Source of the DNA: Nitrososphaerota archaeon
GTDB lineage: Archaea; Thermoproteota; Nitrososphaeria; Conexivisphaerales; UBA164
Direction of reading: 5' to 3'
DNA: 64,000 bases
Assembly (NCBI GenBank): GCA_009903795.1
Contig: WYER01000019.1
Span: 9,395-73,394 of the forward strand
A program made the position numbers and the translations under genes. Positions 17,051 to 43,178 of this stretch are shown piece after piece (the first letter of the stretch is position 1; every line of letters begins with the position of its first letter). The notes under the pieces are model-generated. The model did no database searches. It was not told the origin of the DNA and saw only the letters and a program-made list of their open reading frames with translations.

Positions 17051-18586
17051 TTAATCTTTTTTGGGCTTGATTATAACCCTTTTACCAACTTCTTTCTCTA
17101 ATTTTTCTATGTTCTCTCCGCCTTTGCCTATAATTTTCCCTATAACGTCACGGTTAACTCTTATTATAACGTTCTTTTTTCCTATTTCTATTACAGCTGT
17201 TTTGTCGTACTGTGACACCATTTCTTGTATCTTATTTTTTATTGCTCCCAGAGGGACAACAACCTTTTCGTCCCCATACATGTATATTTCATATTCGAGC
17301 TGTTTGGTTTCAAAATTTCTCACTTCGACTACAGGCCTGGCCAGGTCTTCTGAAGTCATCCCTGTAGGAACTTTAACTACTAAGTTTAGCTCGTAAACTG
17401 TCTTGATCTGCCCGCTCTGAAGGAATATTACAGTATCGACAATCCTTGGTACCATACCTATGTCTATTCTTTCAATAAGTCTCTGGACTGCATCTATAGG
17501 GCTGCTTGAATGAACAACCCCGACCATACCAACGCCAGCAAGCCTCATGTCAGCATAGACTTTAAAGTCCTGAGTTTTTCTTACCTCGTCAAAAATAGTA
17601 TAGTCTGGCCTTACTAGCAAAAGTATTTCAGCAGTCTTTTCAAAGTCGCCTTCCAGGGGAGCGTATTGTGTTATTTCTGGACTAACCTGAAGGTCTCTTG
17701 GAGATTCTAAAGTCTTAACAACTTTTCCTTTTTTAGTGTAAAACTCAGCAAGAGACGCAGCAAGCGTGGACTTACCTGAGCCTGGAGGACCCGCTATTAT
17801 TATTCCTTCTGCCCTTTCCAATCTTTCTCTTAAAGCTGCTGAAACATTGTAATCTTCTAAGGTGAGCTTTATTATTGGTCTAACCAAAGTAACTTCAAGA
17901 CCATCAGAAAAAGGTGGCCTTGCTATTGTTATCCTGTAGTTTCCTAACTGTATGACAGTTGCGCCCCCCGTTTTCATTTCTATGAATGAATCTGGTTCGA
18001 CCCTTGCCCTTTCGTTTATTTCAGAAATTATTTCCTCAAGCTCATCAGCAGTAATTGGCTTATCTGAAACTTTCTCAAGTCTAAAGTCTCCAGGTTTCCC
18101 CCTCTTAACATATGGGGGCACGTTCTCTTTCAAGTGCACGCTCATTACATCCTCTTTGAGATAGTTTTCTATTTTCATAGGTTTTTTCTCTTCTTCTCGA
18201 ATCATATACTTTGAGTTTACACCTTCAGCTTCTGCAACCAGATGCAGAACGTAATCTGAGGTGTAAAGGATTGCTTTGTTCTTTTTTGCTAATTCCAGTA
18301 TCATATAATCTATTCTTCCAGAATGAGCAAGCTTTATGTCTTCGATCGAAGGCAAAGAACCTTTTACTACATACTTAATGTTTTTCTCAACGCTTAGTTC
18401 TCTTATCTTTTTTAACTCTTGAAGACCTTTAAATCCTATTTCAAGACCTTTCGTAGCCTGATTTTGTAGCTCTCCAATAACAGCTCTAGGAACTATAATG
18501 GTTGCCTCTTTAATTTCTCCCTTTTCAATAAGTTTTGAAACAAAACCGTTTATGATAACGCTTGTGTCGAGCAGTATTTTTTCCAA
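17051..18586 (-). CDS. PIN-domain ATPase with C-terminal KH domain (PINA family)
   Basis: ILLDTSVII PIN start, GPPGSGKST Walker A, LESPRDL, IFDEVR, DMRLAGVGMVGVVH, KH motif IIGKGG. Confidence 0.88.
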   Translation of the reverse strand: MEKILLDTSVIINGFVSKLIEKGEIKEATIIVPRAVIGELQNQATKGLEIGFKGLQELKKIRELSVEKNIKYVVKGSLPSIEDIKLAHSGRIDYMILELAKKNKAILYTSDYVLHLVAEAEGVNSKYMIREEEKKPMKIENYLKEDVMSVHLKENVPPYVKRGKPGDFRLEKVSDKPITADELEEIISEINERARVEPDSFIEMKTGGATVIQLGNYRITIARPPFSDGLEVTLVRPIIKLTLEDYNVSAALRERLERAEGIIIAGPPGSGKSTLAASLAEFYTKKGKVVKTLESPRDLQVSPEITQYAPLEGDFEKTAEILLLVRPDYTIFDEVRKTQDFKVYADMRLAGVGMVGVVHSSSPIDAVQRLIERIDIGMVPRIVDTVIFLQSGQIKTVYELNLVVKVPTGMTSEDLARPVVEVRNFETKQLEYEIYMYGDEKVVVPLGAIKNKIQEMVSQYDKTAVIEIGKKNVIIRVNRDVIGKIIGKGGENIEKLEKEVGKRVIIKPKKD

Positions 18587-20357: not shown

Positions 20358-23300
20358 CTACATGTATATTTGAACCATGCCAGTGCCTACAGGTATTGTG
20401 GAGCCAACTATAACGTTTTCTGTTACTCCAAGGAGTTCATCTGAAAGGCCTCTGGCCGCAGCTTCTGCAATAGTTGGAACAGTTATTTCGAAAGCTGCCT
20501 TTGCAAGCACGCTAGTCTTAAATCCAACTATTCCATGCCTTCCAACTGGCAGCACAATGCCCCTGCTCGTCATGATGTCAGCTATTAGCGAAATATGTCT
20601 ATAATCGACTTCAAGACCTTGCTCATTCAATACTTCAAGTATTTCTTTAATGAGCACGTTTCTTGCGGCCTCTATGCCAAGCACGTTTGCAACTTCATGA
20701 ATGTTGTTGGAGATAGTTCTTGTAGGATCTACGTGTGGAATAGCAAGCACTTTTGAAAGGTTGGACCCGCTGGTCTCTATCATCCATTCTCCTTCTTTGT
20801 TAACGACTGAAGCGTTTATGATTCCTGGAACTCCGCTTATTCTAGAATTAAGCATCTTCTTCTGTATGGCTTGAAGCGCTGTAAGTTCATATGTGTTAGC
20901 GTACACAATTATCTGATTGCCGCTAACTTCAATCTTTCTTTTGCCCCCTTCAATAGCCTTTGCAACGTCTTCTGGAGTAAGGCCTCTGTCCTTTAATTTT
21001 TGCGGCGACAGAGTAAAGACTATTATTCCCTCAGTAGGTTCCACTGCAGCATCAGAAACCACGTTTTCAAGCTTTGTAAATATTATTGACCTTGCAACCT
21101 CCTGAGCTTTCTCTGCTGACGATCTGTATTCCTCATCAAGGTATATCTCCATTACCGGCGTTGTAGGTTCTTTGCGCGCGTCAAGGAGTTCTATCAACCT
21201 TGGCAGACCAAGCGTTACATCTCTTTCTCTTACTCCTGCAAAGTGGAAAGTTCTGAGCGTCATCTGCGTACCTGGTTCTCCAACAGATTGAGCCGCTACA
21301 ACTCCGACAGCTTCTCCTGGTTCCACTAAGCTGTTAACGTATTTTTCAACCGTTTTGTTGCATACTTCAGTTACTGCTTTTTCGCTTAATCCTGAATTAA
21401 GCAAAGCGCTCTCCAGATCTTTTACGAGCTTCGGGTTTAATTTTTCCTTTACTTTTTCAACTTCTGACTTTATGTAACTTGCTGAAGCTGGCTTTCCAGA
21501 ATCTGTTGTTTTGATTATTTCGACAAGCCTCTTTACGTTAACTGCAAGGCCATGGTCGCTCTTTGATACGTCAACTCCATCTTCTCCATATTTAAACTGT
21601 ATAATTCCCCCTTCAGGATCCCTTATTGTAAGGTCGTACTCAACCCTTGTGTGTTCCAAAGCATTTATGAGCCTTCTCTGAAGGTAACCGCTTTGTTGTG
21701 TCCTAACAGCTGTATCTACTAAGCCTTCCCTTCCTGCCATCGAATGGAACACAAACTCAAGTACGTTCAACCCATCCCTGAAACTGCTACTCACGAAGCC
21801 CGTTGCTTCAGGAGTAATGTCTCCTTTCTTAAAGTGGCTCAAAGCCCTCTGCGTATAACCTCTAGTTATTCTCTTGCCCCTGATGCTTTGTTGTCCAAGC
21901 ATAGCCATCATCTGCCCGAGGTTAAGGCTGCTTCCCCTAGCTCCTGTTTTGGCCATTATAAAGCCGCTATTTTCTTCGCTAATTACCTTTTCAACTATTT
22001 TGGCTGCTTTATCCCTAGCTCTGCTCAGTTCGTTCATTATGTAGTTTTCAAGCATGTCTTCTGGCTTAACTCCTTTAAGTATAGGCAGCTTGTTTTCCCT
22101 GTACTGAGTTATATAGTTAAGAACGTTCTCGTACGCTTCTTTAACAATTTCCTTTAGCTGCCTCTTGACGCTCTCAGGTATTTCAAGCTCATCGTATCCG
22201 TAAGAAAAGCCTCTGCGAGTTAGGTATTCTATGAATATCTTTAACAGCGAGTTCAATAGATTTCTCGAAGTTTGAGGGCCGTAGTCTTTTGTTATCCTGT
22301 GTAGCATGCTATCTGGTTCTTCAGCTCCAAGCGAAGCCTTATCAAGAACTCCAGAAATCAGTTGACCGTTTTTAACAAGTATGTCATTTTTACCGCCCCC
22401 TACCCATTTTGACGTTCCAACAAAATTAAAGTCCTTTGGCAGGAACAAAGACACGAGCTCTTTTCCAGTATAATATTGCTTTTCTGGTATTTCACCTTTA
22501 TAACCTCCAACGTATGCAAGGTTCATCATATCCTGTTTGCTCAGCTTTGTTTTATCTCTAGTAAGCAAATAAGCGCCCGTTATGTAATCCCTTATTGCTC
22601 CCATTATTGGCGCTCCGTACCTGGGCGTTATTATCTGGTTCTGAACTGCCATCAGGTGCATTGCTTCTGCTTGAGCGTCAAGGCTTTGAGGTACGTGAAG
22701 GTTCATTTCGTCACCATCAAAGTCAGCGTTGTAAGGCGGACAGACAGCTGGATGTAGTCTGAAAGTTCTGCCAGGCAAAACTCTAACGAAATGTGCCATT
22801 ATCGACATCCTGTGCAAGGAAGGCTGCCTGTTAAATAAAACAACGTCGCCGTTCATTAAGTGTCTTTCCACAACATAATCATATGTTAAAGTGTTTGCCA
22901 GAGATTCTCTATCCTGTACATAATCTAGCCTTATCTTAATTCCATCGGGCCTTATGACGTAGTTAGCCCCAGGATAGTTATCTGGCCCGTTCTTGACAAG
23001 TTCTCTCAAGAATTCGATGTTCCATGGAGTAACTCTTTCTGGAACCGTTAACCTCTTTGCTACTTCAATAGGTATTCCAACTTCAGCTATATCTATGTTT
23101 GGATCCGGTGAAATGACTGTCCTGCTTGAGAAATCAACCCTTTTCCCAGAAAGGTTTCCCCTGAACCTCCCTTCCTTACCCTTAAGCCTTTGCGCTAAAG
23201 TTCTTAGAGGCCTTCCCGACCTGTGATGAGCTTGAGGTATTCCTGAGACCTCGTTATCGAAATAAGTTGTTACGTGGTACTGCAAAAGATCTGCTAAATC

Positions 23301-24101
23301 CTGAATTATCAGCGGCGGTGTACCAGATTCCTTTGCTTCAGCTACCCTTTGATTAACTCTCAGTATGTCAACTAGCTTATGGGTTAGATCGTCTTCAGAC
23401 CTTGTACCTGTTTCAAGTATTATGCTAGGCCTTACAGAAACTGGAGGGACTGGAAGCACTTGAAGAACCATCCATTCTGGCCTAGCAGACCTTGGATCGT
23501 ATCCCAAAACTTCAACATCAGAGTCAGGAATCCTTTCTAACCACTCTCTTATCTGGGATGGCATCAACCTTACAGGCGCTCCATCCTCAGTTATTTCATG
23601 GAACGTATGAGGCTTTGTAAATTCGATTTCAAGTTTCTTTGCTCCACAGTGGGGGCATATTTTTGTTTTCTTTGCTTTTGCGACTATTTCTTTTGTTATC
23701 TTTTGTAGAACGATTGGGTTACCACGCGCTTCGTCGAGCTGTTTTCGGTAAGCCTCTATTTCATCATCAGGCAAAAGAATTCTGCCGCATTTTTTACACG
23801 TAGTTACGAGGAACTTGTGAATGTCGTCTACAAAAGCAATGTGCAATACAGGTTCAGCTAGCTCTATGTACCCAAAGTGACCTGGACAGTTGCTAGCTGT
23901 ATTTCCGCACGTTTTACATTTTTGTCCAGGTTCAAGAACTCCAAGGCGGTTATCCATAAGACCGCCTTGAACTGGCATTCCATCTTCATCATACGTCTCT
24001 GGAACAGTTATCTCCACTACTGCGTACTTTCTTATTTCAGTAGGAGACATTAAAGTAAACTTGATTGCACCTATTTTGTTTAAAAATACGTTTTCGCTCA
24101 T
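20358..24101 (-). CDS. rpoA: DNA-directed RNA polymerase subunit A, unsplit (A' and A'' fused)
   Basis: CKTC..CPGHFG, GKRVDFS, NRQPSLH, catalytic NADFDGDEMN, DTAVRT, then directly GTQMTLRTFHFAGV and GTGMV. Confidence 0.97.
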   Translation of the reverse strand: MSENVFLNKIGAIKFTLMSPTEIRKYAVVEITVPETYDEDGMPVQGGLMDNRLGVLEPGQKCKTCGNTASNCPGHFGYIELAEPVLHIAFVDDIHKFLVTTCKKCGRILLPDDEIEAYRKQLDEARGNPIVLQKITKEIVAKAKKTKICPHCGAKKLEIEFTKPHTFHEITEDGAPVRLMPSQIREWLERIPDSDVEVLGYDPRSARPEWMVLQVLPVPPVSVRPSIILETGTRSEDDLTHKLVDILRVNQRVAEAKESGTPPLIIQDLADLLQYHVTTYFDNEVSGIPQAHHRSGRPLRTLAQRLKGKEGRFRGNLSGKRVDFSSRTVISPDPNIDIAEVGIPIEVAKRLTVPERVTPWNIEFLRELVKNGPDNYPGANYVIRPDGIKIRLDYVQDRESLANTLTYDYVVERHLMNGDVVLFNRQPSLHRMSIMAHFVRVLPGRTFRLHPAVCPPYNADFDGDEMNLHVPQSLDAQAEAMHLMAVQNQIITPRYGAPIMGAIRDYITGAYLLTRDKTKLSKQDMMNLAYVGGYKGEIPEKQYYTGKELVSLFLPKDFNFVGTSKWVGGGKNDILVKNGQLISGVLDKASLGAEEPDSMLHRITKDYGPQTSRNLLNSLLKIFIEYLTRRGFSYGYDELEIPESVKRQLKEIVKEAYENVLNYITQYRENKLPILKGVKPEDMLENYIMNELSRARDKAAKIVEKVISEENSGFIMAKTGARGSSLNLGQMMAMLGQQSIRGKRITRGYTQRALSHFKKGDITPEATGFVSSSFRDGLNVLEFVFHSMAGREGLVDTAVRTQQSGYLQRRLINALEHTRVEYDLTIRDPEGGIIQFKYGEDGVDVSKSDHGLAVNVKRLVEIIKTTDSGKPASASYIKSEVEKVKEKLNPKLVKDLESALLNSGLSEKAVTEVCNKTVEKYVNSLVEPGEAVGVVAAQSVGEPGTQMTLRTFHFAGVRERDVTLGLPRLIELLDARKEPTTPVMEIYLDEEYRSSAEKAQEVARSIIFTKLENVVSDAAVEPTEGIIVFTLSPQKLKDRGLTPEDVAKAIEGGKRKIEVSGNQIIVYANTYELTALQAIQKKMLNSRISGVPGIINASVVNKEGEWMIETSGSNLSKVLAIPHVDPTRTISNNIHEVANVLGIEAARNVLIKEILEVLNEQGLEVDYRHISLIADIMTSRGIVLPVGRHGIVGFKTSVLAKAAFEITVPTIAEAAARGLSDELLGVTENVIVGSTIPVGTGMVQIYM

Positions 24102-32004: not shown

Positions 32005-32190
32005 ATGATCACACAAAAAGTATGTTCTTTTTGTGGAAGGCCGATAAAACCTGGTACCGGAATAACAGTGATAATGAACGACGGCAGCGTTCTTAGGTTT
32101 TGCAGCTTAAGATGCAGAGTATATATGCTCGAACATAAAAAGGATCCGAGAAAACTTAAATGGACAGCAAAACATACATCAACGATATGA
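32005..32190 (+). CDS. rpl24e: 50S ribosomal protein L24e
   Basis: [13 protein letters not shown]...FCS..C...PRKLKWT. Confidence 0.95.
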
Positions 32191-32591
32191 GCGAAAAAAC
32201 TTTAATAGTAATTAAACCTGATGCGGTAAAAAGAGGGCTTGTCGGACAGATATTGAGTCGTTTTGAAGCAAAAGGATTTATAATAAAAGAACTCAGAATG
32301 ATGCAGCTTTCAAGAGAAAAAGCAGAAGATTTCTATTCGGTTCATAAAGGAAAGCCTTTCTTTAAAGACTTAGTAGATTTTATAACTTCTGGACCGATAG
32401 TTGCTGCTATACTAGAAGGAAGGAATGCTATAGAAGCTGTAAGGATAATGATAGGAAGCACTGATGCGTCAAAAGCTCCACCAGGATCTATTCGTGGCGA
32501 TTATTCTCTTGGACTAACTGATAATAGCATACATGCAAGCGACTCAGTAGAAAGTTTTCAGAGAGAAGCAAAAGTTCTTGATTTGATTTGA
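32187..32591 (+). CDS. ndk: Nucleoside diphosphate kinase
   Basis: [35 protein letters not shown]; ATGA overlap with the L24e stop puts the start at 32187. Confidence 0.96.
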
Positions 32592-33685
32592 CAGAAGGTT
32601 ACAAAGAATTTGCTACTTATAATGGTTTAAATTTTATAAAAAATTATGCAGAACTTAAAAAATATGAAGCAATAGCTTTTGACATTGATGGCACGCTCAT
32701 TGATTCTAGGGTTTCTTATAACGAGACGATCTATCAAACTGTTTCTATGTTTTATCAGTGGGTCGTTGGCTTTAAACCTCCAAAGGATGAAATAAACAGC
32801 TCTGTAGCAAGGCTCAGGCTTACCGGCGGTTTTAATAACGACTGGGATACCGCTTATACGATTTTGATGGGACTTTATTCGGGTTTTCCGGATGAGATAC
32901 TAAAAGTCTTATCTTTTACTGACTACAAGTTTTTTAAAGATTACATAAAGGTAAAGGTTAACAAGGAAAGCCTTATAGAAACCTCGATAAAGGCGTTAAA
33001 TTATTTATTGATGTATGCAGACAGCAAAGGATTACAGAGCATAGAAGAAGGGCTTAAAAAGCTCTACAATAAAAAGGATAAATTAAATTACCTGATAAAG
33101 ATCAAAGAGAAGCTTAACTATCCTAATTTGCCTAGGAAAAGCCTTCTTTCTACAGTTTTTGAGGAGCTTTACCTAGGTATGGATCTTTTTAAAGAAACTT
33201 GGCAAGCTGAGCCAGTTTTCAAAATCAAAAAAGGGTTTATAGAAGATGAAAAGGTGGTTCTTGAAAACGACGTAAAAACTTTCTTAAAAAAGAAATTTGG
33301 CAACAAAATAGGAATCGCTAGCGGAAGGCCTAAAAAAGCTGCTGTAAAGATTTTAAAAGATTTGCTAGGAAATTTCTTTAATCCTGAGAGTTCTTTTTTC
33401 ATAGATGATGTCTATGCAAGATCAAAAGAACAATGGTTAGGAAAACCAAATCCATTTCTTATTGAACAGGTAATAAAAAACTTAAATGTTAAGAGCTGCC
33501 TTTACGTAGGTGATTCATACGAAGATATATTAATGGTAAAAAATACTAGAGAGTTAGGCTATGAAGTGGGTTTCGTTGGCGTATATGGTTTTTCTCTTGA
33601 TGTGAAAAACTTTATACAAAAATTTATGGAAGCTGATGCAGATGCGATAATTCCTTCTGTAAACGATTTAAAATTTTTGTTTTAA
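32588..33685 (+). CDS. HAD-superfamily hydrolase with a large cap insertion
   Basis: [34 protein letters not shown]. Confidence 0.8.
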
Positions 33686-33842: not shown

Positions 33843-34286
33843 ATGGCAGTCGAAGAAATTGAACATTCAGCTGGGGGGGTAGTATTTAAAGAAAGTAAGA
33901 GCGGCCCTCTCTACCTTGTATTAATAAGTAAAAGGAGAAGATGGGAATTTCCTAAGGGCCATATTGAACCAGGAGAAGATACAAAGATGGCAGCTATAAG
34001 AGAAGTAAAAGAAGAAACTGGATTAAGCGATTTGGAAGTGTTTGACGGTTTTTCTTTCACAGTTACTTATGAATTTTTTAAAAACGGTAACAAGGTGAAA
34101 AAAGACGTCGTTTATTATTTAATGAAAACAAATTCTCAAACGGTTAAAATCAGCGACGAACATATAGGTTATATGTGGCTATCTTATGAAAAAGCTCTTA
34201 ATACTTTAACTCATAAAAACTCAAAAAACCTACTGAGAGAAGCTAATTCTTGGTTGATGGCTCTATATGGATCATGGAGGGCATGA
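33843..34286 (+). CDS. NUDIX hydrolase, bis(5'-nucleosyl)-tetraphosphatase-like
   Basis: SAGGVVF, WEFPKGHIEPGED..AAIREVKEETG Nudix box, ISDEH..YMW. Confidence 0.88.
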   Translation: MAVEEIEHSAGGVVFKESKSGPLYLVLISKRRRWEFPKGHIEPGEDTKMAAIREVKEETGLSDLEVFDGFSFTVTYEFFKNGNKVKKDVVYYLMKTNSQTVKISDEHIGYMWLSYEKALNTLTHKNSKNLLREANSWLMALYGSWRA

Positions 34287-34385
34287 ATATCGATCAAAAT
34301 TTATGTATAAATATTTTGTTTTAAAACAAAAATTTTTTGACAATCATAACTTTATATACTTCTATTAACTAGTAGTCTAAGAGAT

Positions 34386-36188
34386 TTGAGCAGCAACCTT
34401 ATGACAAAAAGGCTAAAAATCATCTTTTCTGTACTAGCCTCAAAAAGCAGACTAGAAATAATTAGAATACTTGCAGCAAAAGGAGGAATGACGTACACAG
34501 AGCTCAAAGAAGCTTCAGGGTTTACTCCAAAGAGAGAATCAGGTAAATTTGCTTATCATCTTAAAAAGCTGGTGCAGCAAAATTTAGTAGTGCAGAACAA
34601 ACAAGAAAGAAAATACATGATAACGCCACTAGGTAGGCTTGTCCTATCGCTTGCTAAGCAGATCGAAGAGGAGTCTCTCGTTTCTTCAGGGCGCTTATAC
34701 GTCAGGGAATCATCACAAAGAATTGAAGAGTTTGATACCTCAAAAATAGTTCAAAGCCTTATAAAAGAAGCCAATGTGCCCCTAGAAGTAGCTCAAAACA
34801 TAGCAAGCGAAGCTGAATCTCGTATATACAAGTTTCAACTTACATATCTCACATCGCCGCTCATCAGAGAGGTTGTAAATTCAATTTTGTTAGAGCAAGG
34901 TTTAGAACAGTATTGGAAAAAACTAAGCAGGCTAGGCATGCCTGTTTATGACTTGGAAGTTATGCTTGAAGAAACAAGCAAAGAAGGAGAGGGGTTTGAG
35001 GACGTTGTGTACAAAGCGGCTGAAAGAATATTTTCTGACTATCTTGTGAGATCTGATCTTCCAACAGATTTGATAGATGCCCACTTTAACGGGAAGATAC
35101 ATCTATCTTTTCCCGAAAACTGGATGTTTAAACCCGATGTTATTGCGTTAGACCTTAATTTGCTAGACGGTATAGCAAACAAAGAAAGTTTAACGTTTGA
35201 AAATTTCATAAAACTTGTTTATGGTCTTTCTAGAGAGGCCAATGCGGAAGTTTTTATTAAAATCAACGAGCCGATGATTGAAAAATTGAAAAAGGAATCC
35301 TTTTTTATGTTACAAAGCTTGCTTCCAAGCACAACTAGATCTCCTGTATTGACAATACACGTTGATAAAGTTGACGATGAGATAATCAATGAATACAATA
35401 GGTTTTTACTTAAAGTAAAAAAACCAAAAGTTTTGCTTAGCACAAACATGAAAGTTCAAGCGCCTTTATTGCTTGTAAACAACGACAACAAGACTTCCAT
35501 AGGTTTTAAACTGAACGAAGAAAAAGGCCTTGAAATAGGAATAATATCCGCATCAATAAATCTGCCACATTTGGCTAATGAGGCTCAGAACGAAGAAAGT
35601 TACTTTAAGGTTAAAGTACTTTTATTAAAAGACATCTTACAAGACGCTATTACGCAAAAGAATAAGCTCATTAATAACAGGCTTTTGATGGGCCTTCTTC
35701 CAACGTTAAAAGAATTAGCAGTTAAACATCCATCAGAATATATTTCTCCACTAGTAAATTTGGCAGGACTAAAAGAAAGTATGATAATGTTAAACATAAA
35801 CCAAGAGGATGTAATAAAAAAGGAAATCGAGCTTATAAACCTTCTACAGGAAAAGATCGGTTACCCTGTCTCATGGATACAAGATGATTCTGGAGAACGT
35901 TTGGCGCACTTAGATTCTCAAAAGCTTGGAAAAAGGTTCAGCCTGCGCCCATATTCTTTAGGATTAGAAATTTATGATGAAAATAATTTTAATGAACAGG
36001 AAATAAAGGAACTTAATAAACATTTGAAAGGAGGTTTAAGGCTAACGTTAGGTTTTCATATAAATGAAAAAACTACATACCTTTACAAAGAAAAGGAAGT
36101 AAAATGCAAAAAATGTGGATGGAACAACCCAATCTCTTTGAAAAATTGCAGAAACTGTGGATACCCTTTAGAACCTGCAAAAACCTAG
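34386..36188 (+). CDS. wHTH + ATP-cone + degenerate NrdD-like barrel + Zn ribbon fusion protein
   Basis: N-terminal RLEIIRIL..MTYTELK..FAYHLKKL..KYMITPLG (ArsR-like wHTH); YVRESSQRIEEFDTSKIVQSLIKE (ATP-cone); DAHFNGKIHL, SINLPHLA, GERLAHLD (NrdD-like); CKKC/CRNC; no glycyl-radical loop. Confidence 0.75.
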   Translation: MSSNLMTKRLKIIFSVLASKSRLEIIRILAAKGGMTYTELKEASGFTPKRESGKFAYHLKKLVQQNLVVQNKQERKYMITPLGRLVLSLAKQIEEESLVSSGRLYVRESSQRIEEFDTSKIVQSLIKEANVPLEVAQNIASEAESRIYKFQLTYLTSPLIREVVNSILLEQGLEQYWKKLSRLGMPVYDLEVMLEETSKEGEGFEDVVYKAAERIFSDYLVRSDLPTDLIDAHFNGKIHLSFPENWMFKPDVIALDLNLLDGIANKESLTFENFIKLVYGLSREANAEVFIKINEPMIEKLKKESFFMLQSLLPSTTRSPVLTIHVDKVDDEIINEYNRFLLKVKKPKVLLSTNMKVQAPLLLVNNDNKTSIGFKLNEEKGLEIGIISASINLPHLANEAQNEESYFKVKVLLLKDILQDAITQKNKLINNRLLMGLLPTLKELAVKHPSEYISPLVNLAGLKESMIMLNINQEDVIKKEIELINLLQEKIGYPVSWIQDDSGERLAHLDSQKLGKRFSLRPYSLGLEIYDENNFNEQEIKELNKHLKGGLRLTLGFHINEKTTYLYKEKEVKCKKCGWNNPISLKNCRNCGYPLEPAKT

Positions 36189-36504: not shown

Positions 36505-37791
36505 TTGGATCCTGTAGAGTATTCAAGAAAGTATGGGGGTAAAATACAGATAATACCTAAAGTACCGTTAAAAAGCTATGATGACTTTGCTATAATATAC
36601 ACGCCGGGCGTAGCTCAAGTTTCTAAAGTCATTGAAGCTGATGAAGATAAAAGTTTCGAGCTGACAAGTAGAGGAAATACAATAGCAGTGTTAACAAACG
36701 GGACAAGGGTTCTTGGGCTAGGGCCTATTGGTCCTATAGCTGGTCTACCTGTCATGGAAGGAAAAGCTCTCCTTTACAAATTTTTAGGCGGAGTAGATGC
36801 GGTGCCTTTAGCTGTTAAAGCAGATACTGTTGATGAAATGTTAAAAATAGCTGAAGCAATTCAGCCTTCTTTTGGTGGAATAAATTTAGAAGACATAGAA
36901 AGCCCGATGTGTTTTGAAGTATGGGAAAGGCTTCTTGAAAAGCTTAAGATACCTGTATGGCACGATGACCAGCACGGTACAGCTGGAGCTATACTTGCTG
37001 GTTTGATAAACGCCATAAAACTTGCAGGAAAAAAGAAAGAAAACGTTAAAGTTGTGCTTTTTGGAGCTGGGGCAGCAAACATAAGGACAGCTTATGTTCT
37101 CATAGATTATGGGTTTAACCCAAAAAACATAATTCTTATAGACAGCAAAGGGCCACTTCACGCTAACAGGGAAGATGTAGACAGGCTTATGTTTGTTCAT
37201 AAATGGAAATATGAACTTGCAATAAAGACAAACGGTGAGAACGCGATAACAATAGAAGACGCTTTTAAAGGCGCTGACATTCTCGTTGCAGCTAGCAAAC
37301 CAGGGCCAGGTACTATAGATAAGCGCTGGATAATGCAAATGAACGACAAAGCGATAACTTTCCTGTTGGCTAATCCAGTTCCTGAAATGATGCCTGATGA
37401 AGCAAAAGAAGCTGGGGCCTACATAGTTGCTACCGGAAGAAGCGACTTTCCCAATCAGGTTAACAATTCTTTGGTCTTTCCTGCTGTTTTCAGAGGCGTG
37501 CTTGACAGCAAAAGCACTAAAGTTGATAACCAGATAGTTATTGCAGCCGCTGAAGAGCTGGCAAGACAGGCAGAAATAAAAGGAATTTCTGAAAATTATA
37601 TATTACCAAGAATGGATGAATGGGAAGTGTTTATAGAAGAGGCAGCGTCAGTTGCTGATGCTTCAGCAAGGCTCGGGTACGCGAGGGTTAAGTTATCTAG
37701 AGAAGAGTACAGAGAAATCGCAAAGCATAAGATAGAAAGCAGCAGGAAGATCTTAAACAGCATAATACAATTTATTGAAAACGGTCAATAA
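36505..37791 (+). CDS. NAD(P)-dependent malic enzyme
   Basis: [49 protein letters not shown]. Confidence 0.93.
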
Positions 37792-37803
37792 TTAAATTAG
37801 TTC

Positions 37804-39012
37804 TTATGTAACGAGATTTGCTAAAAGCTCAGATATATCCATGACCGATTCATCTTTATATAGGTTTACAAAACATATTGGGCATGAGGTTATGATGATT
37901 TCTGCCTTTGTTTGCTTGAGTTCTTTAAATCTTTTATCTGAAATCTTTTCAGAAGCTTTAGGATAAAAAGCTTCAATAGGTCCGCCACAACAGTACGTGT
38001 TTTTTCCATTATGTATGGGTAGGATCAGATTTGTAATGCTTTCAATAAAACCTTTCGGCACGTTATGATCGGTATGTCTTACAAGGTGACACGGTTCATG
38101 ATAAGTTACAATTTTATCTAATCTTGAGAATTTTAGCGTGCTCAGATGGTCAAGGTAAAATGTTACGTTAAAATCAAAGCCTTTTACATATTTTGTATAC
38201 TTGTTGAGTAAAACGTCGTAAGTGTGAGGGTCAACTGTAATTATGTTCTTTACACCTTTTTTATGAAACAAATCAGTAACCCACTGAGCGTATTGTTTAA
38301 ACTCATTCACATAACCCATATCTATCATCAGCGTACCAGGATATGGTTCTTCCACTCCTAGATAAGAAAATTTAACGCCTGCTTTTTTTAAGAGAAAGTA
38401 AATGTTCTTTAGTTGACTTTCAGACCTTTCTTTAATCTTTTTATCGTAAAACTTTGAGAAAATAAAAGAAGGATTGCCTAAAGATGAAAGTAAAGGGGCC
38501 AAGAATCTGTAAAGCTCTCCTATTGATTTCAGCATTTCGCTAAGTTTTTTGTTGTAAGCCATGAGCTGATGCATGTGCCCAGTATAGAGTATAGTTTCGT
38601 ATGAATTTTCAAATTCAAGGCCTTTTGACCATTCGGTTAATTCTTTTTTTAAACCTAAAGGGTCCTTGTATTTAAAAACAATTTTGGTTATCATCTCGGC
38701 TACCTGATGCTTCTGGTTCTCTATCTGGCCCTCAGCTATGGCCTGTTTCATAAGCTCACTGACAACACCAGAGTTTACGTGTGCAGGACATACCTGAAAA
38801 CAAGCATAACAGTCAAGGCAAGATTCAAAAGGATCTCTAAAGTTAAGGCTATGGTTACCGCTCAAAAACTCTTTGGCTAAGTTTATTCTCCCTCTTGCGC
38901 CCATTGATGTTTTATAGTCAAAAGCAGGTATTGTAGGGCAGACAGCTTCACAGAAGCCGCAGTTAATGCAGTTTGATGCTTCTGAAGAGAGAGCTCTTAT
39001 AACTTCATTCAA
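37804..39012 (-). CDS. Fe-S subunit of glycolate/lactate dehydrogenase (GlcF-like)
   Basis: CINCGFCEAVCP and CLDCYACFQVCP 4Fe-4S motifs plus CCG-domain motifs (YHEPCHL, CCGG, SCPIC); probable TTG start at 39012 overlapping the upstream stop. Confidence 0.85.
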   Translation of the reverse strand: MNEVIRALSSEASNCINCGFCEAVCPTIPAFDYKTSMGARGRINLAKEFLSGNHSLNFRDPFESCLDCYACFQVCPAHVNSGVVSELMKQAIAEGQIENQKHQVAEMITKIVFKYKDPLGLKKELTEWSKGLEFENSYETILYTGHMHQLMAYNKKLSEMLKSIGELYRFLAPLLSSLGNPSFIFSKFYDKKIKERSESQLKNIYFLLKKAGVKFSYLGVEEPYPGTLMIDMGYVNEFKQYAQWVTDLFHKKGVKNIITVDPHTYDVLLNKYTKYVKGFDFNVTFYLDHLSTLKFSRLDKIVTYHEPCHLVRHTDHNVPKGFIESITNLILPIHNGKNTYCCGGPIEAFYPKASEKISDKRFKELKQTKAEIIITSCPICFVNLYKDESVMDISELLANLVT

Positions 39013-40363
39013 TGAGCTTTCCCCTGTTGAGTATATTCTTTGGATCAAATACGTTCTTGATCTTTTTCATAAGTTCAAGGTTTATCTGGTTGTTCCTATA
39101 AGCGAACTCTTTTAATAGAAGCTCTTTTTTCTCTAAGCCTATTCCGTGTTCTGCTGAAACGCAGCCTTCATGTTTTACTGCTATCATTCCTGTTTCAAGC
39201 AACAACTCTTTTGCTTTATCAAAATCGTTAGGGCCGGCGAAGATATTTACGTGTACGTTGCCATCGCCTATGTGTCCAAAAACAGCAATCTTTAAACCGA
39301 TCGATTTAGCTGCATTGTATATTTCCTCTATAGTTTCTGAAATTTTCGATGGAGGGACAACTATATCCCCTATTATAACTCTTTGCTCAGGGGTTTCCCT
39401 CTCTAAAAGTAAAGAAGAGTATAGACCTTTCCTGAGCTTTAACGTATCGTCCATCTCTTTTTTATCCTTTATTGTTCTTAACTCAATTGGTGACGTTTCT
39501 TTAATCGCTTTTAAAACTTGATCGCTCATTTCTGAAGTTATTATAATAAGTAGCGCCTTAGCATTGTCCGGATATGGTATGCCGTAGCTCTTTACTGCGT
39601 TCATTGAAACCTCATCTAAAAACTCAGCTGTCAGCGGTATAAGTCCTCTCTCATTAAGCGTGCTTATTACATCTCCAAATCTTTTATAGCTATCATAGAA
39701 AGCGAGAAACATGGCTTCCCTTTCAGGCAATGGGGCTATTTTTAATGTTGCTTTGGTGACTACGCCTAAAGTGCCCTCGCTGCCTATCATTAAAGCGGTA
39801 AGATCATAGCCTTCTGACCTTTTGAGAGTCTTTTCGCCAAACTGGGTAATAGTGCCATCAGGAAGAACTACTTCAAGGCCTAAAACCCATTCCTTAGTTG
39901 CTCCATACTTGGCTCCTCTCACGCCTCCAGCATTGGTGTTTATCGATCCGCCTATGGTTGCTGCTATATCGCTTGCTGGATCAGGAGGATACATGTATCC
40001 GTATTTTTCTAAATATGAATTAAGCTCTCCAACCCTGACACCGGCTTCCGCGATTACATACCTATCTTTTATGTTTACTTCAAGTATTTTGTCAAACCTA
40101 AGCATGCTCATGACTATGCCGCCTTCAGGTACAGATGAACCTGTTAAAGAAGTGCCTCCTCCTCTCACGTATACTGGCACATCATTTTCGTAACAAAGCT
40201 TTAGAACCTTAGACACCTCAAAAACGTTCCCAGGAATAACAACAGCTATAGGTTTTTCCCCTTCGATGTAAGATGCGTCCTTAACGTACGGAACAATCTC
40301 CTCATATTTTGTTAAAACATACTTTTTGCCAACTATATTTGCAAGCTCATTTGCAATGTTCAT
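39005..40363 (-). CDS. FAD-linked glycolate/D-lactate dehydrogenase subunit (GlcD-like)
   Basis: RGGGTSLTG, PPDPAS, TIGGSINTNAGG, KYGAT, HIGDGNVH, SAEHGIG, FDPKNILNRGK. Confidence 0.88.
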   Translation of the reverse strand: MNIANELANIVGKKYVLTKYEEIVPYVKDASYIEGEKPIAVVIPGNVFEVSKVLKLCYENDVPVYVRGGGTSLTGSSVPEGGIVMSMLRFDKILEVNIKDRYVIAEAGVRVGELNSYLEKYGYMYPPDPASDIAATIGGSINTNAGGVRGAKYGATKEWVLGLEVVLPDGTITQFGEKTLKRSEGYDLTALMIGSEGTLGVVTKATLKIAPLPEREAMFLAFYDSYKRFGDVISTLNERGLIPLTAEFLDEVSMNAVKSYGIPYPDNAKALLIIITSEMSDQVLKAIKETSPIELRTIKDKKEMDDTLKLRKGLYSSLLLERETPEQRVIIGDIVVPPSKISETIEEIYNAAKSIGLKIAVFGHIGDGNVHVNIFAGPNDFDKAKELLLETGMIAVKHEGCVSAEHGIGLEKKELLLKEFAYRNNQINLELMKKIKNVFDPKNILNRGKLIE

Positions 40364-40451
40364 TGTTGTTAAATATTGTAAATGTATTTATAAAATATGA
40401 TTTAAAATGCGTTAATAAAATCGTTTATAAAATATAAAATCAGTCAATTTT

Positions 40452-43178
40452 TTAAAATAAATCATAGATATAATCGTGAATTTGCAGAATTTTTCTTGAT
40501 ATTTTCCTTCTCTTAACAGCCTTTACTAGCTCCTCTCTTGATGGGTTTCCGTATTTATCCCTATAAACCGGATTTAGGTTCTTATCCAAGTAATATATTG
40601 CGTCAAGTAGCTTTTGTCTTGTTTTTGTATCTTTATCAGCTAAAGAGAATAGAACTCTAGCGCTGTGCTGAATGTATTTGGGAGAGAATATTTGTCTTTT
40701 AAGTATGTCCATTATTGTAAGAGCTTCCCTACGGTCAAACATTGGTTCGTTTGCTTTTATTATTTCTAGAGCTTGTTTGTACTTAAGCCCAAGTTTTCTA
40801 GATATGTTTCTCGCAGCTTCGTTCAGAGTGATCTTTTTTTCATATGTCGGTTCTTTGCCATAAGCTTTTGAAACAAAATCTTGTACTGCTTGTATATTCT
40901 TACTTATCTTCAGCATATTATCAGTATACTGAAATCCAAGAAGGCTTGCTATCTTTTTAAAGGCGCTTTCGTCAAGCGAGTTATAAAGAACTATTTCCTT
41001 TAAAACGTCATCGAGCTTTTGTATTATTTCTTCATACGTTTTGCCCCCGTCTAAGCCTATCTTAATTATTGCTAACCTATAAGCTACTAACCTATCGTAA
41101 TCTTTGTAAAACTCTGTAGTCCATTTATAATGCTGCTCCCAAATTTTTTCGAACATTTGCTTATCAAAAGTTGTTCCAGCCTTTATATGGTACACATCTT
41201 CATCTGGTATTACTCCGTCCTTTGTAAGCTTAGGCCCTTTTATTGACCCATCCTTTGTAACTTTCGCGCCGTTGTTAGCAAGAGTCCAGAGCCAAGAAAC
41301 GAATATCCTGTAAGTAGCAAGATCGTTCATAAACCTTACGAGCCTGTTAGCAAAGGCTTTGTAATCGTCTATTGCTGCCGCAAGGTTTCCGTTAAGTACC
41401 TGAAAGCCATAGTTTGCTGCCATGTAAAATGCATGCTGTATGTTTTCAACAGTTACGTCTCCTTCTTGTATATCGTAAAGGCTGTTCCAAAGATCTTTTC
41501 CCCTCCAAAGTTTTTCTGATGCAATGAACTTTTCAGGCGTTTCGAACATATCTCTTGTTACTATCCACGGAGTTATTTTGCCGTTTTCATCTATAAGCCC
41601 AAGGCTGTAAAAAAGCTTCTTTTCGTCTTCCGTTAATCCGCTCTCAACCTTCGGAGCTACCTTTTCACCGTTTTGTTCTTCCCAAATAACAGGAGCATCT
41701 AACATTTTTTGCAGCTCTAATATGCCGGCCCTTAAGGGCCCGTTCCCTGCTGCAACGTACTGTTCATCAGGGGATGCCACCCAGCTCTGTCTGTACGCAT
41801 CGTACAGCTTCCCTTTTACTGTTCCTTTTATAATATCATCTAACGTTACTTTTTTACCAGAAACGTCTTCTTCAGGAACAAAGATAAGGCCTATCAACCT
41901 CTCCCTTAATTTATCAAGCTTCATTGCTCTTAATGTTACTGCGTTGTGCCTGTACCTACTGTATGCGTCAGATTTCTGATACAGCATAACAGCTGCCATT
42001 CCACCTATAGGTGCACCGCTCTTCAGCTCACCATCCTTTACGCCTGCCATCACGTTTAACAGAGCGTTGTACCTTTGATAAGCCATCATATGAGGTGAAA
42101 CCATTCCCATACGAGAGTTATTCTGTGGGTCTGAAAGGATCCTCTCGTTCTTCCACATTTCGATCAAGCTCGCAGTATAGTCCCACCTACCTACGTTTGT
42201 CCCTATCAACCAGTACCTCCAGGTCCACATTATTGCGGGAAGGTGCCTACCAGCGTTTCCCTCTTCATAAAGAGCCTTAAACTTAATGAGACTTCCTGGC
42301 TTTTCAGCTCCCATCAACCTCTCTAACTTCCAGATCGCTTTTGCTATCATAAAAGCTTCCTGTGGGGTTTGAGTCTTTGGTATGTAGAATAACAACATCC
42401 TTCCAGATTTATTTAGCGAGTCAAAATCATTTAACGCGTGTATTACCATATCAACTATAAAAGAAGGGGCTGGTTTCCCGTCTATTTTAACGTTAAAAGT
42501 TAATAGATGGATTCCGGGTATCCTGTGAAAGCTAGCGGGCCATTTTTCCATTGGTTTCTGTATTTTGTAGACTCTAAGTTGACCCTTTTTCATCATCTTG
42601 ACTTCAAGCAGCTGACCTGCAAGTATCTTCTTTTCGTTTAACCTAGATTCAAAGAGAGGTATTGAAGATCTATCTCTGCTATTGTAAGGTATGTAGTCTG
42701 GGGGAGCAGCATCTTCGTCATCAGGTCCCATAGTAGCCGCAACATCAGCGTTTATCTGTTTTATCGCCATGTCTGGAGGGTTCCAAGGACCAGTTATTTC
42801 GAGTCCAGGGTTCTTAAGCGGATGCGCGTAATCTGGTATAGGTACCACATCGTTCAAACGCCATGCAAGCTGAGTTTTCTTTCCCAAAAAATTATCGATC
42901 AGCCCCTGAACTATTTCCCTGTAAGTCCTCTTTTCCCCAGTAACTGGATCTTCATAAACTTCGTCCAATTTTGGTATTGAATATTTTTCCCTTACTTTGA
43001 GCGGAGAGTCAAGAATTTCTCTCCTCTTTTTTAGTGAGGCTTCCCAGAGGTCCTTCACTTCATCGTAGACTTGGGCTATAACGTCTTCAACAACAAGCTT
43101 TCTACCGTTTACGGTTTTTTCGCCAAAAAGCTCAGAATACTTCTTAATTACTTTTCTAGAAAGTTTTACTCTTTCCAA
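40452..43178 (-). CDS. Malate synthase, long archaeal (Sulfolobales-like) type
   Basis: LEITGP, DDEDA, FYIPKTQ, LYEE, NVGRWDY, PIGGMAA, DKLRE, MNDLATYRI, YIQHSARVL. Confidence 0.82.
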   Translation of the reverse strand: MERVKLSRKVIKKYSELFGEKTVNGRKLVVEDVIAQVYDEVKDLWEASLKKRREILDSPLKVREKYSIPKLDEVYEDPVTGEKRTYREIVQGLIDNFLGKKTQLAWRLNDVVPIPDYAHPLKNPGLEITGPWNPPDMAIKQINADVAATMGPDDEDAAPPDYIPYNSRDRSSIPLFESRLNEKKILAGQLLEVKMMKKGQLRVYKIQKPMEKWPASFHRIPGIHLLTFNVKIDGKPAPSFIVDMVIHALNDFDSLNKSGRMLLFYIPKTQTPQEAFMIAKAIWKLERLMGAEKPGSLIKFKALYEEGNAGRHLPAIMWTWRYWLIGTNVGRWDYTASLIEMWKNERILSDPQNNSRMGMVSPHMMAYQRYNALLNVMAGVKDGELKSGAPIGGMAAVMLYQKSDAYSRYRHNAVTLRAMKLDKLRERLIGLIFVPEEDVSGKKVTLDDIIKGTVKGKLYDAYRQSWVASPDEQYVAAGNGPLRAGILELQKMLDAPVIWEEQNGEKVAPKVESGLTEDEKKLFYSLGLIDENGKITPWIVTRDMFETPEKFIASEKLWRGKDLWNSLYDIQEGDVTVENIQHAFYMAANYGFQVLNGNLAAAIDDYKAFANRLVRFMNDLATYRIFVSWLWTLANNGAKVTKDGSIKGPKLTKDGVIPDEDVYHIKAGTTFDKQMFEKIWEQHYKWTTEFYKDYDRLVAYRLAIIKIGLDGGKTYEEIIQKLDDVLKEIVLYNSLDESAFKKIASLLGFQYTDNMLKISKNIQAVQDFVSKAYGKEPTYEKKITLNEAARNISRKLGLKYKQALEIIKANEPMFDRREALTIMDILKRQIFSPKYIQHSARVLFSLADKDTKTRQKLLDAIYYLDKNLNPVYRDKYGNPSREELVKAVKRRKISRKILQIHDYIYDLF

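Follow-up and report, generated by a model that had tools for sequence, protein, structure and literature searches.

A predicted transcription regulator of Nitrososphaerota and Bathyarchaeia built on a class III ribonucleotide reductase stripped of its catalytic residues

The protein described here, encoded by a Nitrososphaerota archaeon on the 64-kb stretch of DNA that we analysed (the window), is probably a one-component transcription regulator of deoxynucleotide metabolism, derived from a class III ribonucleotide reductase (RNR, NrdD) that lost its radical chemistry; judging from sequence, we give this reading a probability of about 60%. An open reading frame check of the window finds the gene intact, with 600 codons at 34386..36188 of the forward strand. 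Since near-identical database proteins begin at MTKRLK, the ATG at 34401 (MTKRLK..., 595 residues) is more likely the start than the TTG at 34386. Pfam, profile and Foldseek searches confirm both the reading frame and the four-domain layout that an earlier note on this DNA had proposed:

34386..36188, forward strand: coding sequence for a winged helix-turn-helix (wHTH), an ATP-cone-like domain, a dead NrdD barrel and a zinc ribbon, 600 residues from TTG 34386
34422..34670, forward strand: ArsR/SmtB-type wHTH, residues 13-95, from Pfam and the domain profile
34692..34943, forward strand: ATP-cone-like domain, residues 103-186, Pfam PF03477
34998..36080, forward strand: NrdD-type alpha/beta barrel with the catalytic residues gone, residues ~205-565
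36096..36170, forward strand: Cys4 zinc ribbon homologous to the NrdD ribbon, C574, C577, C588 and C591

Of all parts of the protein, the wHTH shows the strongest conservation. Over residues 13-87 it matches Pfam DUF7347 (E 7e-11) and HTH_20 (E 1e-6), and a profile of the N-terminal domain finds ArsR/SmtB wHTH structures only, 6UVU being the best (E 3e-5). Its segment ESGKFAYHL.KL is invariant, and GKFAYHLKKL aligns with the ArsR recognition helix. While the wHTH and its recognition helix are common to the ArsR/SmtB metalloregulators and the family, the former are stand-alone dimers of ~100 residues, whereas the latter carries a C-terminal extension of ~500 residues and has no metal-binding Cys/His sites; the wHTH itself is free of metal-ligand cysteines, the first cysteine of the protein being residue 574. 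The AlphaFold model, which reaches a pLDDT of ~90 in the NrdD-type barrel, is unreliable in the wHTH (pLDDT <56), and structural conclusions on this domain were not taken from it. The ATP-cone-like domain is very highly conserved by family column counts and is recognised as PF03477 at residues 105-179 (34.3 bits against a cutoff of 25.8, E 3e-8); the ATP-cone of the earlier note thus stands as a domain assignment above the gathering score, but it is an atypical one, in which the canonical Lys-Arg pair is replaced. The barrel carries the motifs DAHFNGKIHL at residue 231, SINLPHLA at residue 390 and ERLAHLD at residue 504. As had been claimed, the zinc ligands C574, C577, C588 and C591, which are invariant in the family, are the only cysteines in the protein.

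How close is the relationship to NrdD? From the single sequence the similarity is weak (E 0.003 in a Pfam-type domain search), and the PDB search with it returned one ArsR protein and ribosomal L40e zinc ribbons only and missed NrdD, so that profiles were required. The family profile detects Thermotoga maritima NrdD in the PDB (4COI, E 1e-13). Genuine NrdDs were gathered from a seed, the marginal NrdD match that was all that tblastn against phages returned, and hhalign aligns the family with them over 492 columns at 99.8% probability (E 7e-29). In a Foldseek search with the AlphaFold model the best 27 matches are all class III RNRs (probability 1.0); NrdR appears in one weak partial match (9a6n_B, rank 43, E 2e-3, 113 columns). 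With the NrdDs of T. maritima (4COI), S. thermophilus (9D3X), P. copri (8P2C) and phage T4 (1H78) the family has in common the fold from cone to ribbon and the motifs INLPR, R..LD, Y(S/T)xx and GG. Two intact NrdDs, P0362 and P0379, also possess the unusual [VI]RTS cone hairpin of the family, in P0379 as part of the inner, core-proximal cone next to a second, canonical one, and enzymes of this type are likely to be close to the family's ancestor.

Unlike NrdD, the family has neither the thiyl-radical cysteine nor the second cysteine nor the glycyl-radical domain, its HxHD motif is degraded, and it has gained a wHTH and has no activase gene nearby. The column of the radical cysteine (E. coli C384, T4 C290) holds F374 in the window protein and I, V, L, F, S, M or A in 70/70 aligned relatives, and that of the second cysteine (E. 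coli C175, T4 C79) holds V252 and, again in 70/70, T, V, I, A or S. The family alignment stops at E. coli position 678, before the glycyl-radical motif RVCG681Y, and the chain ends 4-12 residues past the ribbon in all of the 120 listed homologues; the window protein, with 9 residues after C591, has no glycyl-radical loop. Of the HxHD motif, which binds the substrate triphosphate in NrdD (PMC11226230), the first His alone is retained (H-[IL]-[SPAT]-[N/W/Y/R/F] in the family, H-L-S-F in the window protein). Kept in the barrel are INLP(R/H)xA, R505..D510, Y523 and G549-G550. No NrdG-type activase is encoded in the window, where the sole CxxxCxxC reading frame (15431-16987, reverse strand) specifies a generic radical-SAM protein of 518 residues, and the genes called in the eight neighbourhoods of the family that we inspected include none either. 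The earlier note was therefore right on the missing catalytic cysteines, the missing glycyl loop and the lack of an NrdG in the window, and comparison of orthologues with NrdD extends the loss of cysteines and loop to the whole family. Many databases nevertheless name these proteins as functional anaerobic ribonucleoside-triphosphate reductases, and the homology to NrdD and its fold are real. Yet with the radical cysteine, the second cysteine and the glycyl-radical domain missing and HxHD degraded in every member examined, with no NrdG in the window, and with hosts that include aerobic ammonia oxidisers with a class II RNR next door, such a function is scarcely credible; a working NrdD was rejected on account of both cysteines, the glycyl domain and the HxHD motif.

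What, then, can be discerned from the genomic context of the family? A word-indexed search yields 785 matches, with at least 591 GTDB species loci, and a family of this size argues for a gene under selection and against a pseudogene. Among the 71 informative Nitrososphaerota loci, all outside the window's clade, 64 have the orthologue directly beside nrdJ, the gene for the B12-dependent class II RNR (TIGR02504 score 722 against a cutoff of 400). The two genes lie on the same strand in 55 of these loci, with a median gap of 249 bp, and are convergent in 9, with gaps of 8-33 bp or a slight overlap. Relatives in Bathyarchaeia adjoin dcd or pyrH/pyrI, the dcd locus being the same synteny block that holds nrdJ in Conexivisphaerales. 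At locus L018 no nucleotide gene is directly adjacent to the family gene; on its upstream side a UPRTase gene follows at a distance of 2.5 kb, and the downstream genes include those of FEN1 and of a subunit of DNA polymerase. As the relatives' gene adjoins that of a working reductase, a regulatory control of DNA-precursor genes is likely.

A candidate operator agrees with this. The imperfect palindrome GTCAA-N6-TTGAC is over-represented ahead of both nrdJ and the family gene: in counts with crude dereplication only (49/70 sequences) and otherwise uncorrected for phylogenetic relatedness, TTGTCAA occurs at 3.0/kb in nrdJ-upstream intergenic regions against 0.23/kb in the other intergenic regions of the same loci, and the dyad with N6 spacer is found exactly in 7/61 of the former and 0/568 of the latter, or in 25/61 and 23/568 with at most one mismatch. 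Spacers of 4, 7 and 8 show no enrichment, and the matches in the other regions mostly lie upstream of the family gene itself (26 of 83 own-upstream regions). The palindrome often takes a composite form with a third half-site upstream (TTGAC-N5-), of which 53 of 107 matches fall in ~3% of the sequence, with perfect copies at two loci (L079 and L083); the half-sites are spaced 11 bp from centre to centre, roughly one turn of the helix. At nrdJ promoters of Nitrosopumilus and Nitrososphaera the half-site TTGACAA stands beside a TATA box, and many Nitrososphaera nrdJ promoters have at most one half-site. The main dyad of several soil lineages is placed ~85 nt ahead of the nrdJ TATA box, where a classic repressor would not be expected to bind, and the dyad is absent from two Bathyarchaeial loci.

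Could the main action instead be at the level of protein, with the family member serving NrdJ as a non-catalytic partner or allosteric modulator, or buffering nucleotides, while the wHTH is secondary? The tight adjacency to nrdJ would fit, as would the convergent pairs, which cannot be a simple regulator-operator arrangement, and pseudoenzyme partners of active paralogues are common. However, such a role would leave unexplained why the wHTH, with its invariant recognition helix, surpasses all other parts in conservation, and why a spacer-specific palindrome is enriched at the nrdJ and own promoters; furthermore, NrdD is only distantly paralogous to the class II RNRs, hetero-oligomers of the two are not known, and the window clade retains the gene without an adjacent nrdJ. 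We consider a partner role quite improbable.

The window's short clade (591-623 residues), in which nrdJ is not adjacent, shows the gene in a different setting. There is no nrdJ in the 64-kb window, and the gene follows a same-strand cluster, with candidate sites at its own promoter:

32160..32591, forward strand: ndk, nucleoside diphosphate kinase, last gene of an L7Ae-S28e-L24e-ndk array
32588..33685, forward strand: HAD-superfamily hydrolase, 365 residues, linked to the family gene in the window clade
33843..34286, forward strand: Nudix hydrolase, a neighbour in 9/10 window-clade loci
34337..34343, forward strand: TTGACAA half-site of the own promoter, 7 nt before its TATA-like box
34351..34358, forward strand: inferred TATA-like box TTTATATA of the own promoter, read from the sequence and conserved in the window clade
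34365..34390, forward strand: candidate composite operator TTAAC-N5-GTCTA-N6-TTGAG, between TATA box and start codon

The tenth window-clade contig (L014) begins just upstream of the family gene, and the linkage to the HAD-family gene survives local inversions (L009, L014). The position downstream of ndk, HAD and Nudix genes given in the earlier note holds as a same-strand cluster, but the ndk linkage may be partly incidental, because ndk ends the recurrent L7Ae-S28e-L24e-ndk array, which is intact in both window-clade loci examined for it (L006, L007). The candidate operator of the window departs from TTGAC-N5-GTCAA-N6-TTGAC by three mismatches, one per half-site, and in five orthologous loci (L005, L009, L010, L011, L012) the own-promoter half-sites are conserved and the spacers variable. 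Over the whole window, counts are at the level of shuffled sequence (dyad 2 against 2.0 expected, 7-mer 13 against 12.9; composite 3 against 1.9, not significant), so it is position and conservation in orthologues, not abundance, that speak for the own-promoter site. In the Nudix promoter of this clade a block is conserved, but it shows no convincing half-site arrangement, and Nudix is not claimed as a target. Thus, the candidate sites visible in this clade are those of the own promoter and would indicate autoregulation; further candidate targets are the nucleotide genes alongside and an nrdJ located elsewhere in the genome.

Our analysis suggests the following mechanism for a regulator of deoxynucleotide metabolism. 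The NrdD core would still dimerise like real NrdDs and thereby set two wHTHs on the palindrome. Binding of a nucleotide at what is left of the effector or substrate sites of NrdD, at the atypical cone, or at both, would change the conformation or oligomeric state and alter DNA binding, so that the expression of RNR and related genes would follow the (d)NTP pool, with the family gene itself also under control. Since the sites overlap the BRE/TATA region and the presumed start of transcription, the sign of this control may be repression. In the window clade the gene would have moved from nrdJ into the ndk-HAD-Nudix cluster.

Which nucleotide, if any, might be sensed? In an alignment with the cones of NrdJ and E. 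coli NrdD, the family cone has V-R-[T/S/E]-[S/T] in place of the canonical Lys-Arg hairpin pair (V106-R107-x-S109 in the window protein), with an invariant Arg one position earlier. In PcNrdD the equivalent Lys7 and Arg8 contact the triphosphate (PMC11226230). With a cone that lacks this pair and a degraded HxHD, a role of the family protein as an ATP/dATP sensor is plausible only. The same two features would suit a DNA-binding regulator of nrdJ and dNTP genes in which the dead core is only a dimerisation scaffold and which responds to something other than a nucleotide or to no small molecule at all, as would the hairpin of the two-cone P0379: since [VI]RTS there marks the inner cone beside a canonical one, a cone of this kind may never have bound nucleotide. 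Such a design appears unlikely, however, as the cone-like domain and the NrdD nucleotide-pocket motifs (DxHxxGxIH, INLPR, R505..D510, Y523, G549-G550) are invariant across lineages that are only ~35% identical, which would be needless for a mere scaffold, and the genomic theme is always nucleotide metabolism. Within the reading of a nucleotide-responsive regulator, we put forward tentatively, as a possibility well short of even odds, that the dead core retains the specificity site at the dimer interface, and perhaps remains of the active site, and that it reads the balance of all four dNTPs, where NrdR responds to ATP/dATP alone, and sets by it directly how strongly nrdJ, dcd, ndk, Nudix and HAD genes are transcribed.

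Most likely, the protein belongs to the enzyme-derived one-component regulators and works like NrdR without being related to it. NrdR, the bacterial repressor specific to RNR genes, is linked to nucleotides and binds palindromic boxes ahead of these genes and often of its own; a role of this kind is predicted for the family, with a different palindrome enriched at such places. Both are often encoded beside RNR genes, and both combine an ATP-cone-type domain with a Cys4 zinc ribbon. As whole proteins, however, they are not homologous: NrdR, of ~150 residues, binds DNA through an N-terminal zinc ribbon that is followed by the ATP-cone, whereas the family is arranged as wHTH, cone, barrel and C-terminal ribbon over 600 residues, with DNA binding assigned to the ArsR-type wHTH and not to the ribbon, which is NrdD-derived, with a dead RNR barrel of ~400 residues added, and with a cone without the Lys-Arg pair. 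The candidate operator GTCAA-N6-TTGAC is likewise not an NrdR box, and the likeness in operators would be one of function. The archaeal analogue of NrdR proposed in the earlier note gains from the adjacency to nrdJ, the palindrome and the dcd and pyrH/pyrI neighbours of relatives, but in the window clade itself it has the own-promoter site only. Precedents for the design exist. Bacterial NrtR, a Nudix domain joined to a wHTH, is an enzyme-derived one-component regulator, and archaeal RbkR, a riboflavin kinase with a wHTH (PMC5397151), likewise fuses the wHTH to a pathway enzyme as ligand sensor. The genes of such regulators lie next to their targets, as the family gene does to its presumed ones; the putative sensor of the family differs in being a large allosteric enzyme with several potential nucleotide sites. 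Our literature search found no description of an RNR as a sensor module, no paper on the family and none at all on DUF7347.

The transcriptional control of ribonucleotide reductase in archaea is largely unknown, NrdR being reported as rare in this domain (PMC9110341), and the hosts of the family, in at least 591 species-level genomes, include globally abundant ammonia-oxidising archaea. With an operator predicted, the hypothesis is open to direct tests in cultures of Nitrosopumilus and Nitrososphaera. If the family does regulate RNR, a widespread misannotation would be corrected, as an 'anaerobic RNR' in aerobes skews inferences on oxygen tolerance. A reader of all four dNTPs, if real, would be the main regulator of the dNTP pool in Nitrososphaerota and Bathyarchaeia, where NrdR is rare. 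Finally, an RNR regulator of this descent would represent convergent evolution with NrdR, in which an essential radical enzyme was recycled as a sensor for the pathway that it once catalysed.

What is the product of the 600-residue ORF at 34386-36188 on the forward strand? Its translation probably starts at ATG 34401, since near-identical database proteins open with MTKRLK. Pfam bears out the two N-terminal domains of the earlier note, an ArsR-like wHTH at residues 13-87 (DUF7347, E = 7e-11; HTH_20, E = 1e-6) and an ATP-cone at residues 105-179 (E = 3e-8, exceeding the gathering score). Compared with structures, a profile of the N-terminal domain matched only the ArsR/SmtB family (6UVU, E = 3e-5; further ArsR, NmtR, CadC, HlyU, SmtB and CzrA), with the ArsR recognition helix aligned to the invariant GKFAYHLKKL of the family. 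The NrdD-like motifs noted previously lie at residues 231, 390 and 504. While the single-sequence Pfam match to NrdD is only marginal (residues 388-455, E = 0.003), profile methods make the homology firm: the family profile matches the NrdD structures 4COI of T. maritima (E = 1e-13), 9D3X of S. thermophilus and 1H78 of T4, and hhalign aligns the family with genuine NrdDs over 492 columns, from cone to zinc ribbon (99.8% probability, E = 7e-29). With an AlphaFold model (pLDDT 79.9 overall, about 90 in the barrel), each of the best 27 Foldseek matches was a class III RNR (probability 1.0). The C-terminus (36171-36188) reads ...PLEPAKT, against ...PLEPTKPSF in the 99-100% identical database proteins P0001 and P0002, a small difference between near-identical strains.

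Catalysis has been lost throughout the family. Profile-profile alignment places the radical cysteine of E. coli, C384, at F374, in a column holding I, V, L, F, S, M or A in 70/70 relatives and preceded by a conserved Gly, and C175 at V252 (T, V, I, A or S in 70/70), so that the absence of the catalytic cysteines claimed for the window protein extends to its orthologues. The same is true of the glycyl-radical loop: the last aligned E. coli position is 678, immediately short of RVCG681Y, and 120/120 listed homologues end 4-12 residues past the ribbon. The window protein indeed has exactly four Cys (574, 577, 588 and 591) and stops nine residues past the last. HxHD, with which NrdD recognises the triphosphate of its substrate (PMC11226230), is degraded here to H-x-[S/P/A/T]-x. 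As the earlier note had stated, no NrdG was found in the 64-kb window, where the sole radical-SAM-like ORF is a generic member of 518 residues. A functional NrdD is ruled out by the missing radical Cys, C175 equivalent, RVCG681Y and intact HxHD; judged from its sequence, the protein cannot be an enzyme.

The strongest new evidence for a regulatory link is adjacency to nrdJ, the gene of the adenosylcobalamin-dependent class II RNR (TIGR02504 score 722; cutoff 400). Among 71 loci outside the window clade with sufficient flanking DNA, nrdJ lies directly downstream on the same strand in 55 (median gap 249 bp), is convergent and directly adjacent in nine, is separated by one gene in five and lies 4.9 kb away in one; only in L018 is there none nearby. 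In five soil-lineage loci (L039, L044, L057, L062 and L083) about 1.5 kb, probably one extra gene, separates regulator and nrdJ, and the composite operator still directly follows the regulator gene. The nrdJ match at L053:12313-16101 spans about 3.8 kb instead of the usual 2.6 kb or so, possibly through an intein or insertion. In the bathyarchaeial locus L091, a dCTP deaminase starts 17 nt after the family gene, within the block NAC-PUA-HTH_3-GTPase-Trm56-TFIIE-alpha that holds nrdJ in Conexivisphaerales. Set against the Conexivisphaerales-type L003:8001-12559 and L004:8001-12378, L091:8001-10857 shows one dNTP gene exchanged for another while the place in the block (GTPase HflX-like) stayed the same. 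In L090, also bathyarchaeial, the family gene stands between a UMP-kinase-like gene and pyrI.

In the window clade (591-623 residues, identity 54-100%), nrdJ is near the family gene in 0/10 loci, and no RNR was found in the 64-kb window. Here the gene follows a Nudix gene, with HAD and ndk close by, a proximity that outlasts local inversions (L009, L014). The linkage may in part be incidental, as ndk also closes an L7Ae-S28e-L24e-ndk array, though the nucleotide theme recurring in all lineages argues against its being wholly so. In L012, a masked run of N (about 9340-9470) immediately upstream of the Nudix gene leaves no promoter sequence to compare.

A motif search upstream of the genuine RNR genes pointed to a putative operator. 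Of 61 intergenic regions upstream of nrdJ, 32 contain TTGTCAA/TTGACAA (3.0/kb), compared with 29 of the 568 remaining intergenic regions in these loci (0.23/kb). The heptamer is one half of an imperfect palindrome, GTCAA-N6-TTGAC, found exactly in 7/61 against 0/568 and with up to one mismatch in 25/61 against 23/568. The dyad is weakly enriched with an N5 spacer (8/61 against 3/568) and not enriched upstream of nrdJ with spacers of 4, 7 or 8. Most GTCAA-N6-TTGAC matches away from nrdJ precede the family gene (in 26/83 of its upstream regions), usually as GTTAA-ATACWW-TTGAC. For the three-half-site pattern TTGAC-N5-GTCAA-N6-TTGAC (up to three mismatches), 53/107 matches fall in own- and nrdJ-promoter zones covering about 3% of the 1.53 Mb scanned; L079 and L083 carry perfect copies. 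The 11-bp half-site spacing would fit a wHTH dimer on one helix face. Across the whole window the operator patterns are not enriched overall; the 99-bp gap upstream of its family gene contains:

34337-34343, TTGACAA half-site, 7 nt before the TTTATATA box
34351-34358, TTTATATA box
34365-34390, candidate operator TTAAC-tagta-GTCTA-agagat-TTGAG, between the TTTATATA box and the start codon

That five orthologous promoters keep the half-sites while varying the spacers suggests autoregulation in the window clade, probably as repression, since the candidate site spans the expected transcription start. In certain soil lineages, about 85 nt separate the main nrdJ dyad from the TATA box downstream of it.

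The weakest link of the regulator model is the sensing step. In the P. copri NrdD cone, Lys7, Arg8, Arg87 and Arg91 are among the basic side chains coordinating or neighbouring the triphosphates (PMC11226230); at the equivalent of Lys7/Arg8 the family hairpin reads V-R-[T/S/E]-[S/T], its invariant Arg displaced by one position. The main rival, a transcription regulator of dNTP genes that senses no nucleotide, draws on this hairpin and the degraded HxHD, but is unlikely given that few parts of the protein are as well conserved as the cone-like domain and that DxHxxGxIH, INLPR, R505..D510, Y523 and G549-G550, which surround the nucleotide pockets in NrdD, do not vary among proteins of about 35% overall identity. 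Despite the altered motifs, nucleotide sensing by the family protein is plausible on these grounds.

The family is large: a word-indexed search gave 785 relatives, and scanning a single genome for each GTDB species gave at least 591 loci. The best 80 of these carry generic or Nitrososphaerota-type labels (Nitrosopumilus, Nitrosarchaeum, Nitrososphaera, Nitrosomirales, Gagatemarchaeum, Conexivisphaerales). The exceptions are L016 ('Candidatus Micrarchaeota') and L031 ('bacterium'); as the usual pairing of family gene and nrdJ is present in both, and a Nitrososphaerota-type operator in L031, these contigs were probably mis-binned or mislabelled. Databases variously name the proteins 'anaerobic ribonucleoside-triphosphate reductase', 'ArsR family regulator' or 'DUF7347 domain-containing protein', and literature searches found no published description. 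An exhaustive profile search (2245 proteins at E <= 1e-3, 348 at E <= 1e-30) added a second tier of 700-800 residues, mainly from Bathyarchaeia with one from Thorarchaeota, which shares the wHTH and cone, lacks the radical Cys in its barrel and ends in a tail of about 35 residues, without conserved radical Gly, that looks like a vestigial glycyl-radical domain. P0379, P0381 and P0362 are catalytically intact NrdDs without wHTH (HxHD, MGCR/MCCR, RITGY), and P0362 and P0379 have the unusual [VI]RTS cone hairpin of the family. Together with the second tier, this shared hairpin suggests a series in which an intact NrdD of the [VI]RTS subtype acquired the wHTH and lost catalysis (Bathyarchaeia type) and then lost the tail (Nitrososphaerota type). 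In P0362 (1206 residues) an intein interrupts the finger loop at its catalytic Cys-Cys; P0368, P0375, P0383 and P0386 (1100-1700 residues) are known here from lengths and cone-region matches. The NrdD-like P0350 (675 residues) and P0364 (730 residues) have no wHTH and apparently lack both the radical Cys and RxxGY, so that non-catalytic NrdD relatives may exist beyond the wHTH-fused family.

Elsewhere in the window, two adjacent, overlapping forward ORFs of about 490 residues (9111-10598 and 10585-12045), matching MutS domain V (ATPase) only, form a paired MutS-like module, and a reverse-strand ORF of 511 residues (17051-18586) joins an N-terminal PIN domain to a T2SSE/PilT-like ATPase. A single unsplit ORF of 1247 residues (20358-24101, reverse) encodes the largest subunit of RNA polymerase (Rpb1 domains 1-5), as is typical of Nitrososphaerota. 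A cluster at 36505-43178 encodes malic enzyme, an Fe-S protein of CCG-domain type together with an FAD-linked, glycolate-oxidase-like oxidase, and a 908-residue protein with a malate-synthase TIM barrel. With the H+-pyrophosphatase (1581-3833), it suggests a lineage of heterotrophs that do not oxidise ammonia. Among close relatives, L005 also has CO-dehydrogenase-like genes and L007 cytochrome bd.

Of the proposed analogy to NrdR, a part in regulating RNR and dNTP metabolism is supported by nrdJ adjacency and the palindrome, and a nucleotide effector is plausible. Bacterial NrdR, reported to be rare in archaea (PMC9110341), is functionally the closest system, but the family protein is not a member, differing in DNA-binding domain, order of parts, size and operator; to NrdD it is homologous, yet catalytically inert. 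It shares its design with archaeal RbkR, an enzyme-derived one-component regulator (PMC5397151), and we favour, with a probability of roughly 0.6, a transcription regulator of dNTP-metabolism genes in which a dead RNR would act as nucleotide-responsive sensor.
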